A stretch of 11,769 nt of DNA, from IMG/VR virus record IMGVR_UViG_2693429700_000006, one strand, 5' to 3'. Positions within the stretch are counted from its first letter, which is position 1. Every line of letters starts with the position of its first letter. Source of the stretch: a virus. Lineage: Duplodnaviria > Heunggongvirae > Uroviricota > Caudoviricetes. The notes beneath the pieces are model-generated. The model searched no databases, was not told the DNA's origin, and saw only the letters and a program-made list of their open reading frames with translations. Positions 1 to 11,769 of the stretch are shown piece by piece. A program made the translations under genes and the position numbers.

Positions 1-124
1 GGGAAGGCTGGGCCATACTCCTCCGGCAGAAGCAGAAAAAGCTTATTATGCTTCCATCGGAAACGATGATCTGGCAGCCTGAGTTCACAGATAAAACACT
101 CTCCAGGAAACCCGGGGCGGTTCA
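1..124 (+). mobile_element. Right terminus of an IS3-family insertion sequence (IS629-like): 3' end of the orfB transposase reading frame (2..82, ...AEAEKAYYASIGNDDLAA-stop) plus terminal inverted repeat ending ...CCAGGAAACCCGGGGCGGTTCA at 124
   Basis: Reverse complement of 99..124 (TGAACCGCCCCGGGTTTCCTGGAGAG) is a near-identical inverted copy of 11637..11662 (TGAACCGCCCCGGAAATCCTGGAGAC). TGA...TCA termini are typical of the IS3 family. The plus-strand frame ending at 80..82 reads like a transposase C-terminus. The element extends beyond the window start. Confidence 0.75.
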
Positions 125-543
125 GGTTTTGGCGTGTATTCTGGAACAGGTTTCCCTTTTTTTCTGCATGCTTCTGCCCTGAGTCTCCAGTTTTCCTCAT
201 GACGCCGGTTCGTCATTTTCTGCATTGCTGAATAAATTTTTGATTCAGTAATGTCTCTTAGTTGCATTCCTGCGAAATGTTGAAGCCAGAATCCGATCCG
301 GCTTTTGTCATCGTCCAGTGATTTTTTATGTGCTTTCTCTTCAAGCCACCTGACACACGCTTCCTCGAACGTTATATCAGGTATTTCACCAAGTTTGCTG
401 ACCCGCCATGCTTCAGCCTTTAGCTTGTCATGGAGTTCTGTCGCCTGCCTTTTGTCCTTTGTTCCAAGAGACTGTTTAAATCTTTTACCGTTCGGCAATG
501 TGAAACTGGCGTACCATATTTCACCTCTGCGGAAGAGTGACAT
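85..543 (-). pseudogene. Tyrosine recombinase (phage integrase) N-terminal fragment, truncated by the IS insertion at 124/125; only about 139 native codons remain and the last 13 codons plus stop are IS-derived
   Basis: N-terminus [34 protein letters not shown]... resembles the N-terminal arm-binding domain of Rac-type lambdoid integrases, which are normally about 400 aa. The reading frame runs into the IS terminal repeat and stops at 85..87. The xis-int overlap arrangement is conserved. Confidence 0.8.
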
Positions 544-770
544 TTTCTTTCCTCTGTTATGCCATCACCCGCGCTCACCTGGACAGTATGCAGCGGAGAC
601 TGAAGAGCCGCAATGCAGGCTTGTCGTGTTGTGAGGTAAGGAGATTTATTCTTAGTGGGATCTTTGCGTGTTGCCTGAAGACGCCCTGTGCGTATCCAGT
701 TAATGGCAGTCGGTCTGGATATCTTGAGAAAATGACAGGCCTCATCGAGAGTGAGGCTGTATGGCTCCAT
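420..770 (-). CDS. Excisionase / recombination directionality factor (HTH_17-like DNA-binding protein), 116 aa from the internal Met ([31 protein letters not shown]...)
   Basis: The HTH motif is typical of Xis/AlpA-type excisionases. The ATG at 768..770 overlaps the TAA of the upstream gene as TAATG, and AAGAGGTG lies 6 nt upstream. The 3' end overlaps the int start as in lambda xis-int. The longer ORF starting at 854 is rejected. Confidence 0.7.
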
Positions 771-1075
771 TATTTCACCTCTTGCTGTGACATTGTTGAA
801 AAATGGATACCAGCTCGTTGCTGCCAGACGATCCAACCGAGAGTCATATCCCATGCCATGTATTCGTTATCGCCGTTTTTTGCTCTCCGACGATCTACTA
901 AGTCACCGAAACGCTTTTCCATGAATAATTCATAAGCTTCGCGTTCATCTGGTTCTACTTCCAGAGATAGGAGTGCGATTTCATAAGCACGGCGCTCAAT
1001 ATCGTCTCGCACGTCAAGGCTGCTGATACGCTCTTTAATTTCTTTAATCAGTTCTTTGTCGGTAAAAGTGGTCAT
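770..1075 (-). CDS. yfdT: Small acidic hypothetical phage protein, 101 aa (YfdT-like)
   Basis: Intact ORF, translationally coupled to neighbours by TAATG overlaps at both ends. Size and position in the P-Q-R-S-T order match the CPS-53 yfdPQRST cluster of E. coli K-12 as recalled (101 aa). Confidence 0.55.
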   Translation of the reverse strand: MTTFTDKELIKEIKERISSLDVRDDIERRAYEIALLSLEVEPDEREAYELFMEKRFGDLVDRRRAKNGDNEYMAWDMTLGWIVWQQRAGIHFSTMSQQEVK

Positions 1076-1437
1076 TATGCTCCAGCCTCCGGTGCTTTTG
1101 GCATTACTGCCCAGTGAGTGATATTGACGTTTTCAAGGTCCCCAACCTGAAATGTCCACTGCCATTCTCCGGTTTCTTTTTGTCCCCAGGTGTACCAGAG
1201 AGAACGCCAACCAATTAGCCAGCCTTCTCCGTTAGCATCGAATAACAAAACACTTTCATTTGCTGGTGGCAGTTCAGTTGACACTGGTATTACTTTGTTT
1301 TCCTGTGCTGCACATTTAGCTTCAAGCGCATCGAATTTACGCACCAGGTATTCAGCATCTGTTTCATTTACTTTCAGATCTCGCGGTACACATCTCCCAC
1401 GAAGAAACCCTTCCATTTCGAAAACATTCATGCGCAT
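1075..1437 (-). CDS. yfdS: Hypothetical phage protein, 120 aa, Trp-rich C-terminal half (YfdS-like, possibly DUF551)
   Basis: Intact ORF with its start overlapping the stop of the upstream HD-domain gene. Length and order match K-12 YfdS (120 aa) as recalled. Confidence 0.55.
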   Translation of the reverse strand: MRMNVFEMEGFLRGRCVPRDLKVNETDAEYLVRKFDALEAKCAAQENKVIPVSTELPPANESVLLFDANGEGWLIGWRSLWYTWGQKETGEWQWTFQVGDLENVNITHWAVMPKAPEAGA

Positions 1438-1964
1438 TTGCGTAACTCCGATAACTCGTTAAAGCGTTCCATAAACATCCCGTAGGCATGGCCCGGTGCC
1501 AGTGGAATCACGTTGAACATCTCTGTTGCCGGGATACCTTCCAGTACAGGCCAGAAAGAGCCATCATCAAGCCCGAGATCGCGGCGTTCGGTTGCCAGCA
1601 TGATGAGATCGGCATATTTCACGGGCGTACTCATAACTGGGGGTAACCCGTATTTCTCACGGATTACGGCGTCTATTTTTTCTTCCATTTGTTTATAGTC
1701 AGGAAGAAGGCGTTTCAGTGGTGCGGGAATGTCCTGGCAATACGCTTCTGTTGCATCATGCATTAACGCTTCAAAAGCAAATTCCTGCGGCACCAACTGG
1801 CTGCAAAGAACCGCATGTTGGGCGACGCTGTAGAAGTGCGAAAGATGACCGGCAAAGCGACAGATATTTGAAAGGGAAACCGCGATATCGTTAATATCGA
1901 TGTCGTCTTTATTTATCCTGTCATAATAAAAATGCTTCCCGGAAAAAGTTTTAATAAATGACAT
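1428..1964 (-). CDS. yfdR: HD-domain metal-dependent phosphohydrolase (YfbR-like 5'-deoxynucleotidase fold), 178 aa from the ATG at 1962..1964
   Basis: H...HD signature (FAGHLSHFYSVAQHAV ... LMHDATEAY). GGAG lies 7 nt upstream of the internal ATG, giving 178 aa, the recalled length of K-12 YfdR. The ORF-track GTG start at 1991 is less likely. Confidence 0.7.
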   Translation of the reverse strand: MSFIKTFSGKHFYYDRINKDDIDINDIAVSLSNICRFAGHLSHFYSVAQHAVLCSQLVPQEFAFEALMHDATEAYCQDIPAPLKRLLPDYKQMEEKIDAVIREKYGLPPVMSTPVKYADLIMLATERRDLGLDDGSFWPVLEGIPATEMFNVIPLAPGHAYGMFMERFNELSELRKCA

Positions 1965-10354: not shown

Positions 10355-10390
10355 TGGCCTGCCACGGGGCGGGAGCGGCGCGGAAAAAGG
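10355..10390. other. Putative cos region (cosN-like GC-rich core CACGGGGCGGGAGCGGCGCGG) upstream of the small terminase gene
   Basis: Position between the lysis cassette and a Nu1-like gene. Resembles the recalled lambda cos junction (ACGGGGCGGCGACCTCGCGG) and the downstream CGTCAT motif. Exact nick sites cannot be determined. Confidence 0.3.
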
Positions 10391-10552
10391 CTAGTTTTTG
10401 AAATTTCATTCGTCATCACCACTACTGTAATGCATTGATATTACATTGGTTTTATTTTTATGGTGTCGATTTTGATTGTTTTTTGTTCATCGCTAACACC
10501 GTTTGCCTAAAGTTGTTCGCAAGATGCATGTTTAAAACATTCTGGAGCGGGT

Positions 10553-11047
10553 ATGGATCGAGAGTTAAAAAATCTGACGCTGAATATCAGTCAACTGGCG
10601 GCACTGTCAGGTGTACATCGCCAGACTGCTGCGGCAAGGCTGCAAAATCTACCCGTTGCAGGGGGGCATGAAAGCAACCTCAAGCTTTATCGGGTGGTTG
10701 ATATTGTGTCGGCATTTCTGGCATTACCACCGCCGGTTGCAGAAGGCGAAATGGACGCGCATGAGCGCAAAGCCTGGTATCAGTCTGAACGTGAGCGTCT
10801 TAAGTTCGAACAGGAAACGGCGCAACTCATTCCGGCCAGTGATGTCAGACGGGAGTTTGCCATCTGGGCAAAAGCGGTCGTGCAGGTGCTGGAGACATTA
10901 CCGGATATTCTGGAACGTGACTGCGGTCTGCAGCCTGCCGCTGTGAGCCGTGTTCAGTCCATTATTGATGATCTGCGCGATCAGATAGCCCTGCGGGTGA
11001 CCGAAGCAGGTGCGGATGATGAGGAGGAATTACAGCAGGAGGAGTAA
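10553..11047 (+). CDS. Terminase small subunit (Nu1-like, N-terminal HTH), 164 aa
   Basis: N-terminal HTH (LNISQLAALSGVHRQTAAARL) and acidic C-terminus. GGAG lies 6 nt upstream. The stop overlaps the large-subunit start as TAATG. Confidence 0.75.
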   Translation: MDRELKNLTLNISQLAALSGVHRQTAAARLQNLPVAGGHESNLKLYRVVDIVSAFLALPPPVAEGEMDAHERKAWYQSERERLKFEQETAQLIPASDVRREFAIWAKAVVQVLETLPDILERDCGLQPAAVSRVQSIIDDLRDQIALRVTEAGADDEEELQQEE

Positions 11048-11685
11048 TGCTGAATCAGGAAACCGCAAAGGCAGCACGAACCGATTCAGGTTATATCCTT
11101 CGCGCACCGAGGCGAATGCGGGTTGCTGATGCCGTTGCTCAGTATATGCGGGTGCCCATGGGGGCAGGGAACTCAGTCCCGTGGGATCCGCTGGTGGCAC
11201 CGTATGTTATTGAGCCGATGAACTGCCTGGCCTCGCGTGAATACGACGCAGTGATATTTGTTGGCCCGGCACGAACCGGCAAGACTATCGGCCTGATTGA
11301 CGGCTGGGTGATTTACAACGTGATTTGCGATCCTGCTGATATGCTGATCATTCAGATGACGGAGGAAAAAGCCCGCGAACACTCCAAAAAACGACTCGCC
11401 AGAACGTTTCGCGTCAGCCCGGAAGTGGTCAGTCGCCTGAGTCCGAACAAAAATGACAACAACGTTTATGACAGAACATTCCTTGCTGGTAACTACCTGA
11501 AAATCGGCTGGCCGTCAGTCAATATCATGTCCTCATCAGATTATAAATGCGTCGCGCTGACGGATTATGACCGTTTTCCGGAAGATATTGATGGCGAGGG
11601 GGATGCTTTCTCTCTTGCCTCAAAACGTACCACAACTGAACCGCCCCGGAAATCCTGGAGACTAAACTCCCTGAGAAAGAGGTAA
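11047..11685 (+). pseudogene. Terminase large subunit (gpA-like) N-terminal fragment, about 196 native codons, truncated by the IS insertion at 11636/11637
   Basis: Walker A motif VGPARTGKT. AGGAGGAG RBS. The reading frame runs into the IS inverted repeat and terminates at 11685; a full-length protein would be about 640 aa. Confidence 0.8.
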
Positions 11686-11769
11686 ACAGGATGACTAAAA
11701 ATACTCGTTTTTCCCCCGAAGTCCGTCAGCGGGCGATTCGTATGGTTCTGGAAAGTCAGGATGAATATG
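11637..11769 (+). mobile_element. Left terminus of an IS3-family insertion sequence (IS629-like): terminal inverted repeat TGAACCGCCCCGGAAATCCTGGAGAC and start of orfA at 11691 (MTKNTRFSPEVRQRAIRMVLESQDEY...)
   Basis: The terminal repeat matches the inverted copy at 99..124. The orfA N-terminus matches the IS629/IS3-family OrfA (HTH) as recalled. The element continues beyond the window end. Confidence 0.8.

Follow-up and report, generated by a model that had tools for sequence, protein, structure and literature searches.

An IS629-cut left arm of a thrW-type lambdoid prophage in Escherichia coli, very probably the remnant of stepwise disablement

A phage segment closed at both ends by insertion sequences (ISs) of the same orientation, each cutting a key phage gene, raises the question of whether the two copies delimit a mobile unit, mark deletions, or coincide with the points at which an assembly stops. 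The window analysed here, 11,769 nt long, is the entire contig CYAS01000098.1 of the draft E. coli assembly GCA_001283645.1. Its first 124 nt (1–124, + orientation) are identical in all 124 positions to the last 124 nt of the complete 1310-bp IS1203/IS629 copy of NZ_CP148401.1, and contain the last 82 nt of orfB with its stop codon at 80–82. The last 133 nt (11637–11769, also +) match the first 133 nt of the complete copy in 133/133 positions, with the start codon of orfA at 11691. IS629-like ends in the same orientation thus lie where the preliminary description had placed them, and the near-identical, mutually inverted terminal repeats that it reported were borne out as 25-bp imperfect repeats of the form TGAACCGCCCCGG...TCCTGGAGA, the right one at 100–124 (−) and the left one at 11637–11661 (+). 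The two repeats share 22 of 25 bases and differ in the central 3 nt, and 0 matches to the motif are expected by chance (200 shuffles). Only these 124 and 133 nt of IS sequence, and hence only the start of orfA and the end of orfB, fall inside the window, so that the completeness of either copy is beyond reading from it. In NZ_CP148401.1, which has the identical terL junction, the copy at that place measures 1310 bp and is annotated as IS1203, with a ‘programmed frameshift’ and a pseudoknot.

Short-read contigs stop at multi-copy IS elements, a 1.3-kb repeat not being crossable by the assembler. Since the window is a whole draft contig, its bracketing by ISs is largely a product of assembly; a sister assembly, which carries a third IS629 copy at window position 7447, likewise breaks at each of its IS copies. 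Taking all the evidence together, the window, which spans int' to terL', is very probably the dead left arm of a defective tRNA-Thr (thrW)-type lambdoid prophage that was cut by IS629, was disabled in steps and ends on both sides in repeat-induced contig breaks. The case is one of ordinary IS-driven prophage decay, the biology of which is already known.

Positions 125–6262 are collinear with the intact thrW prophage of strain EC25 (NZ_CM169476.1) at 99.8% identity, and we identify the phage part of the window, on sequence comparison, as the native left arm of a thrW-type lambdoid prophage; attL and thrW themselves lie off the contig. The gene order of the window and its collinearity with EC25 and VTB97432v agree with the lambda-like succession int-xis-early-immunity-replication-Q-lysis-terminase. 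The thrW prophages of both strains have the same integrase type and early-left genes as the window, and that of EC25 also matches it in the immunity region and in the DUF1441/GpA terminase type. Compared with intact thrW prophages, the window lacks attL, the C-terminus of int, 5.8 kb between ori and Q, and everything from terL codon 197 to attR.

What remains can be followed from left to right. Behind the int remnant, a putative excisionase-like HTH_17 protein is encoded at 420–854 (−; weak Pfam HTH_17 match, RefSeq ‘helix-turn-helix domain-containing protein’), followed by a block of early-left genes (770–3344, −; PHROGs, Pfam and RefSeq names) that comprises a yfdT-like gene (770–1075), a phage protein (1075–1437), the YfdR 5'-deoxynucleotidase (1428–1964), YfdQ/DUF2303 (2092–2916) and YfdP (2982–3344). 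The immunity region holds a CI-like repressor of the LexA family (4033–4707, −; Peptidase_S24, PF00717; RefSeq ymfK ‘LexA family protein’) and, by annotation, a Cro-like YdaS HTH protein (4798–4998, +) and a YmfL/Phage_CP76 protein (5042–5593, +). A truncated replication-initiator-like HTH_36 gene (5938–6276, +), annotated as a pseudogene in NZ_CP148401.1, precedes an annotated DNA methyltransferase (N6_N4_Mtase; 6569–7621, +) and a lysis cassette (7689–9594, +; annotation and PHROGs) consisting of holin EssD (7689–7904), YdfR/DUF1327 (7909–8253), lysozyme RrrQ (8597–9130) and an Rz-like lysis protein (9127–9594), with a 90-aa ORF at 8219–8491 on the opposite strand. The small terminase subunit (DUF1441; 10553–11047, +) is assigned through phrog_141 ‘terminase small subunit’ (E 7e-74) and PF07278. 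An Rfam scan of the window found nothing.

The end of the replication region is itself a scar. By blastn and base-by-base comparison with EC25, 5,778 bp are missing at a joint between 6261 and 6262; the deletion starts inside the ori iteron array, shows 2 bp of microhomology at the joint and removes the sequence from the C-terminus of O through the antiterminator Q.

At the right end, the GpA-type large terminase (11047–11636, +; PF05876, GpA_ATPase) is broken after position 11636. Mapped on the 700-aa terL of EC25, 590 nt or 196 of 700 codons are kept, in agreement with the preliminary description, and the called ORF runs on into the IS to a stop at 11685. The junction occurs in one of 5,426 complete genomes, that of strain Z1323CEC0019 (NZ_CP148401.1), and in eight draft contigs that were read. 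In this complete relative the IS is full length. The search for target-site duplications that the preliminary description had proposed could be carried out here, and the flanks read CAAC|IS|GTTT, with no duplication. Beyond the IS lie 55 bp (starting GTTTGAGGATGCTAATC), then IS1, AraC, 'LysR and paoDCBA, and in VTB97432v and EC25 this AraC-'LysR-paoDCBA DNA is the right-hand neighbour of the thrW prophage. The reciprocal junction, in which the right end of the IS would run into the remainder of terL, did not occur in any complete genome; a constructed query gave no match covering both halves.

Because the terL-side IS, lacking a duplication, abuts the right chromosomal flank of the thrW island, the comparison favours an IS-associated deletion that would have removed at least 22 kb of late genes. 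The IS-mediated deletion or rearrangement suggested in the preliminary description is therefore favoured at this side, by the full-length IS without duplication, the non-phage DNA beyond it and the missing reciprocal junction. The source genome presumably continues beyond its terL-side IS with the same DNA as the complete relative. Z1323CEC0019 carries a different integrase module and adjoins yjjG, for which reasons it is a mosaic or rearranged copy and an imperfect proxy for the source genome; a reciprocal recombinant of the left arm, sought in this genome, was not among the best 40 matches.

At the left end, alignment to the intact int of EC25 places the break between positions 16000 and 16001 of L007, which corresponds to window 125. 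With the ATG at window 543 as its start, intact int encodes 387 aa (372 aa in the RefSeq annotation); the remnant of this thrW-type tyrosine integrase (125–543, −) comprises the N-terminal 36%, about 139 codons, and nothing of the catalytic C-terminal part is on the contig. The loss of about two thirds of the coding sequence was thus correctly noticed beforehand. The called ORF (85–543) reads 40 nt into the IS. This junction was present in three draft contigs and in 0 of the 5,426 complete genomes; those closest to the window have the left arm next to a full-length int.

The strongest competitor of a stepwise decay by deletion is that both IS copies are simple independent insertions, with the rest of int and terL just beyond them behind duplications of 3–4 bp in an otherwise complete prophage. 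Simple insertion is the default outcome of IS3-family transposition, and collinearity of the left arm with thrW prophages extends all the way to the int break. On this reading, the sequence to the right of the terL-side IS would be ATTTATGTCCAG... or ATTTATGTCCAGTGG... (the rest of terL), but the sole complete genome with the identical junction has non-phage DNA there and no duplication, and the reciprocal terL junction is missing from all complete genomes. On the int side, where GGTT follows the right end of the IS, an insertion into ...CAACGGACGCT(GGT) would leave ...GTTGCAACGGACGCTGGT|TGAACCGCC... to the left of the IS with a GGT duplication. This reciprocal junction, constructed as a query, had no contiguous match in the 5,426 complete genomes, all matches being split into two separate pieces, and exact-pattern scans of genome contigs and metagenome contigs for the int junction of the window and its reciprocal returned 0 matches. 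These nulls for the reciprocal are weak evidence, since the lineage is rare. One of the two-piece matches represents a different O157 arrangement. A homology search with the C-terminus of int retrieved only huge clusters of full-length or edge-truncated integrases, none of them junction-specific. The 222-aa C-terminal fragment that a simple insertion would yield as a gene call, and which in our model is the same for any duplication length, is indeed common in public assemblies; being present on 186 contigs, however, it is not diagnostic. For the int-side IS taken by itself, a simple insertion has about even odds. For both copies together it is very improbable.

A composite transposon or translocatable unit, in which two direct IS629 copies would move or amplify the 11.5-kb segment as a whole, could draw on the same orientation of two copies of an active IS family and on the ongoing activity of IS629 in the lineage, as seen in the third copy of the sister strain. 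Nevertheless, the segment sits in its native prophage context, its left arm continuing thrW-type int; the right IS of the complete relative borders directly on the DNA that natively flanks the thrW island on its right, and the left side there has no IS; the two junctions are not always found together; and no copy in a second genomic context was found in complete genomes or in genome and metagenome contigs. Such a unit is thus very unlikely, and the part of the preliminary description that envisaged one able to move found no support. If the IS629-flanked block were nonetheless an excisable or transposable module kept and moved as a unit, which we consider scarcely credible, it would give immunity or methylation functions to new hosts.

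A contig that starts in the right end of an IS and stops in the left end of one in the same orientation is formally compatible also with a single IS copy, the contig then representing one IS and 11.5 kb of further sequence in circular or tandem form. This is highly improbable, as the flanks form no duplication (CAAC precedes the IS left end, GGTT follows the IS right end), the terL-side IS runs on into chromosomal DNA in the complete relative, and the int junction is absent from genomes with the terL junction. Assembly chimeras, conceivable in a draft short-read assembly, have a negligible probability and are ruled out by the recurrence of identical junctions in independent assemblies and, for terL, in a complete genome.

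The recurrence of each junction in independent assemblies shows that both are real, and both are inherited. Their distributions differ (three contigs for int; for terL, one complete genome in addition to the eight contigs that were read), and for this reason they look like separate, sequential events rather than a single one, and probably differ in age. The stepwise disablement that we favour would have begun with an IS629 copy in terL, accompanied by the loss of terL from codon 197 onwards and of all that followed, head and tail genes included, as far as the right prophage edge; as to its mechanism we infer either an IS-adjacent deletion or recombination between two direct IS copies. An illegitimate deletion of 5.8 kb would then have taken out the replication, Nin and Q region and later, within a sub-lineage of narrower range, a second copy of IS629 would have come to sit in int, parting its N-terminal third from the catalytic two thirds. 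This putative order is read solely from the number of public assemblies with each junction. The outcome would be a ‘grounded’ remnant, incapable of excision, replication, late-gene turn-on or DNA packaging, which still carries the repressor/cro region, the DNA methyltransferase and the lysis cassette.

A comparable remnant exists in O157:H7 strain 9000 (NZ_CP018252.2), which we take to be Sp1/CP-933H, where a truncated thrW-type int likewise adjoins IS1203 in a short defective prophage. It differs from the window in that int lacks the N-terminus, the IS lies ~470 bp away and the other phage content is distinct, and it represents an independent event. More generally, IS629 accounts for numerous inactivated genes and deletions in the genomes of E. 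coli O157, and IEE-dependent excision gives rise to deletions of a few nt to >40 kb beside IS629 (PMC9943667, PMC3271280). IS629/IS1203 insertions and IS-associated deletions in O157:H7 prophages were described by Rump et al. 2011 (PMC3271280) and, according to PMC9943667, by Ooka et al. 2009 and Kusumoto et al. 2011. The window shares with the O157:H7 IS629/IS1203 cases the same IS (100% identical ends), the same class of target, lambdoid prophages and their remnants, and the same outcome of gene truncation with a large IS-adjacent deletion without target duplication. The insertion sites differ, and the host of the window, whose proteins the source record names as E. coli proteins, is not necessarily O157.

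These findings matter little beyond annotation practice, where they illustrate that IS ‘bracketing’ in a draft contig reflects repeat-induced contig breaks, and that automated annotation gave two truncated genes the names of intact ones, ‘prophage integrase’ (the name of the cut int in the source record) and ‘terminase large subunit’. For the source strain the thrW prophage would be a fixed, non-inducible remnant, and the IS629 junctions could be used to mark the lineage.

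The window proved to be the whole of contig CYAS01000098.1 (11,769 nt) of draft assembly GCA_001283645.1, identified by exact look-up of two junction-spanning ORFs, so that its edges are contig edges. Positions 1-124 are the right end of one insertion sequence and positions 11637-11769 the left end of another, with 124/124 and 133/133 identity, respectively, to the complete 1310-bp IS1203/IS629 of the complete genome of strain Z1323CEC0019 (NZ_CP148401.1), which RefSeq labels as an IS3-like IS1203-family transposase with programmed frameshift. Both ends have the + orientation, and their 25-bp terminal inverted repeats (100-124, − strand, and 11637-11661, + strand) mismatch at three central bases only, shuffled sequence giving no inverted-repeat match. 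The preliminary description had recognized IS629-like ends in the same orientation as well as near-identical, mutually inverted terminal repeats, and was accurate on both points. Only 124 and 133 nt of the two copies lie in the window, from which their completeness is not readable.

The same description had regarded the segment as bracketed by IS copies. The IS ends are real, but the bracketing is mostly an effect of assembly. The equivalent contig in the sister assembly GCA_001284405.1 begins and ends with 111 nt of the IS right end. At one end this is the int junction; at the other it is a third, inverted IS629 copy (1-111 of that contig) that abuts window position 7447, within the DNA methyltransferase gene. 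Contigs of this lineage therefore break at IS629 copies, and any short-read contig between two copies of such a multi-copy repeat would be expected to have IS ends at its edges. The third copy also suggests that IS629 is still active in this lineage. Both junctions are reproducible and not chimeras; their recurrence in other assemblies discards an assembly artefact.

The gene content is that of a lambdoid prophage left arm, in the order int', excisionase-like HTH protein, YfdT-like, YfdR, YfdQ, YfdP, CI-like S24 repressor, Cro-like protein, YmfL, truncated O-like replication gene, DNA methyltransferase, holin, lysozyme, Rz-like protein, small terminase and terL'. A G+C-rich hairpin (AAATGCCCCCGCAGGGGCATTT) lies between yfdQ and yfdR (2045-2092), and a 25-nt imperfect inverted repeat (3393-3481) lies between yfdP and the repressor gene, where there are no genes; within this repeat, at 3411, is the start of contig NONX01000111.1 from a different assembly. 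An Rfam scan of the window gave no match. The comparison with intact related prophages that had been proposed was carried out with strain EC25 (NZ_CM169476.1), whose intact prophage directly adjoins tRNA-Thr (thrW), downstream of proA; window 125-6262 is collinear with it at 99.8% identity, up to the int break.

The integrase gene reads leftwards from an ATG at 543 and is interrupted at 125, between positions 16000 and 16001 of the EC25 locus carrying the intact gene. About 139 of 387 codons remain and the catalytic C-terminal part is absent, in agreement with the loss of about two thirds of the coding sequence estimated beforehand. The fragment is called as an ORF (85-543) extending 40 nt into the IS and is named in the source record as if intact, 'prophage integrase [Escherichia coli]'. 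At this place int is full-length in all the closest complete genomes among the matches listed. The int::IS junction is absent from the 5,426 complete E. coli genomes searched and present in three draft contigs.

On the int side, a simple insertion and a deletion or rearrangement appear about equally probable. The reciprocal junction of a simple insertion (...CAACGGACGCTGGT|TGAACCGCC...) had no contiguous match in any complete genome, nor in species-representative genomes and metagenome contigs, though these nulls carry little weight because the last two collections also lack the int junction of the window itself. Whatever the duplication length, gene calling on the detached C-terminal part is predicted to give one and the same 222-aa protein, which is found on 186 contigs and so is not diagnostic.

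The large terminase gene (GpA_ATPase) has 700 codons in its intact form; here it begins at 11047 and breaks off after 11636, which leaves the 196 codons initially counted. Its ORF call (11047-11685) extends 49 nt into the IS, again under a name suited to an intact gene, 'DNA packaging protein of prophage (terminase large subunit) [Escherichia coli]'. The terL::IS junction was found in exactly one complete genome, Z1323CEC0019, and in the 8 draft contigs read, and window 7753-11769 is 100% identical to that genome. There the IS is complete, with flanks ...ACCACAAC and GTTTGAGG... that differ, so that the suggested search for duplications beside the IS revealed no 3-4 bp target duplication at this copy. 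The IS is followed by 55 bp, an IS1, a gene for an AraC-family regulator, integrase-core and LysR gene fragments, and paoDCBA. The IS1 (19990-20812 of locus L001, NZ_CP148401.1 3928503-3955314) has no obvious target duplication (flanks ...GGAGAGTAC and GGCAAAAGTG...). In VTB97432v the same 55 bp-IS1-AraC-...-pao stretch stands just right of a complete thrW lambdoid prophage, following tail-fibre genes and a gene for an 1180-aa cargo protein, and in EC25 the right flank of the thrW island is also 'LysR-paoDCBA. No complete genome contained the IS1203 right end joined to the terL continuation. The simplest reading is that, along with the arrival of an IS629 copy in terL, all sequence between terL codon 197 and the prophage right edge was lost, which, judged from EC25 and VTB97432v, would amount to at least 22-27 kb. 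From the shared junction we infer that the source genome continues beyond its right-hand IS into the same DNA as Z1323CEC0019. The loss could have arisen by IS-adjacent deletion or by recombination between two direct IS copies; both fit, and the present data do not separate them. Both mechanisms are well documented for IS629, which accounts in O157 for numerous inactivated genes and genomic deletions and whose IEE-dependent excision leaves deletions beside the IS that range from a few nt to over 40 kb (PMC9943667; see also PMC3271280).

A further, clean internal deletion of 5,778 bp relative to the EC25 prophage (joint 6261/6262) begins within the iterons of the O-like replication gene and shows a 2-bp (AT) microhomology; the lost sequence extends from the O C-terminus through antiterminator Q and includes the replication and Nin region. 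Z1323CEC0019 shares it, the gene being annotated there as a pseudogene. This genome differs from the window by 98 mismatches, 82 of them in 958-2685 and none after 7752. In it the terL'::IS1203 remnant is preceded by a different integrase, beside yjjG, while the right flank is the thrW-island pao region, two loci that lie about 0.3 Mb apart on the K-12 map; this arrangement suggests prophage-prophage recombination, translocation or misassembly. By counts of public assemblies the junctions have a nested distribution, which suggests that the terL event preceded the int event.

Homologous recombination between two direct IS copies could in principle remove the block, but nothing shows that this has occurred. 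Nor is there any sign of the composite unit, able to move or be excised, that the preliminary description had envisaged: the left side of the block is in native prophage context, and in Z1323CEC0019 the left lacks an IS and the right is native island flank. A single IS on a circle joining both window ends is unlikely, since the inner flanks differ (CAAC versus GGTT) and, in Z1323CEC0019, the IS on the terL side runs on into chromosomal DNA.

Missing from the remnant are the catalytic domain of the integrase (at least as far as this contig goes), the origin with the replication genes and Q, the greater part of terL and every structural gene. It is incapable of site-specific excision, replication, late-transcription activation or DNA packaging. 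It retains an apparently intact repressor/cro region, the DNA methyltransferase and a lysis cassette without its activator. O157:H7 strain 9000 (NZ_CP018252.2) offers an independent parallel at the same locus, where an IS1203 lies about 470 bp from a truncated thrW-type integrase without its N-terminus, in a short prophage remnant (L011 15457-18160). The window is a further instance of the IS629/IS1203-driven prophage decay described in EHEC O157. The elements and the process are already known, only the exact breakpoints being particular to this rare lineage, and the gain is a corrected reading, in which the contig breaks at repeats, the events were sequential and a deletion took place at terL.
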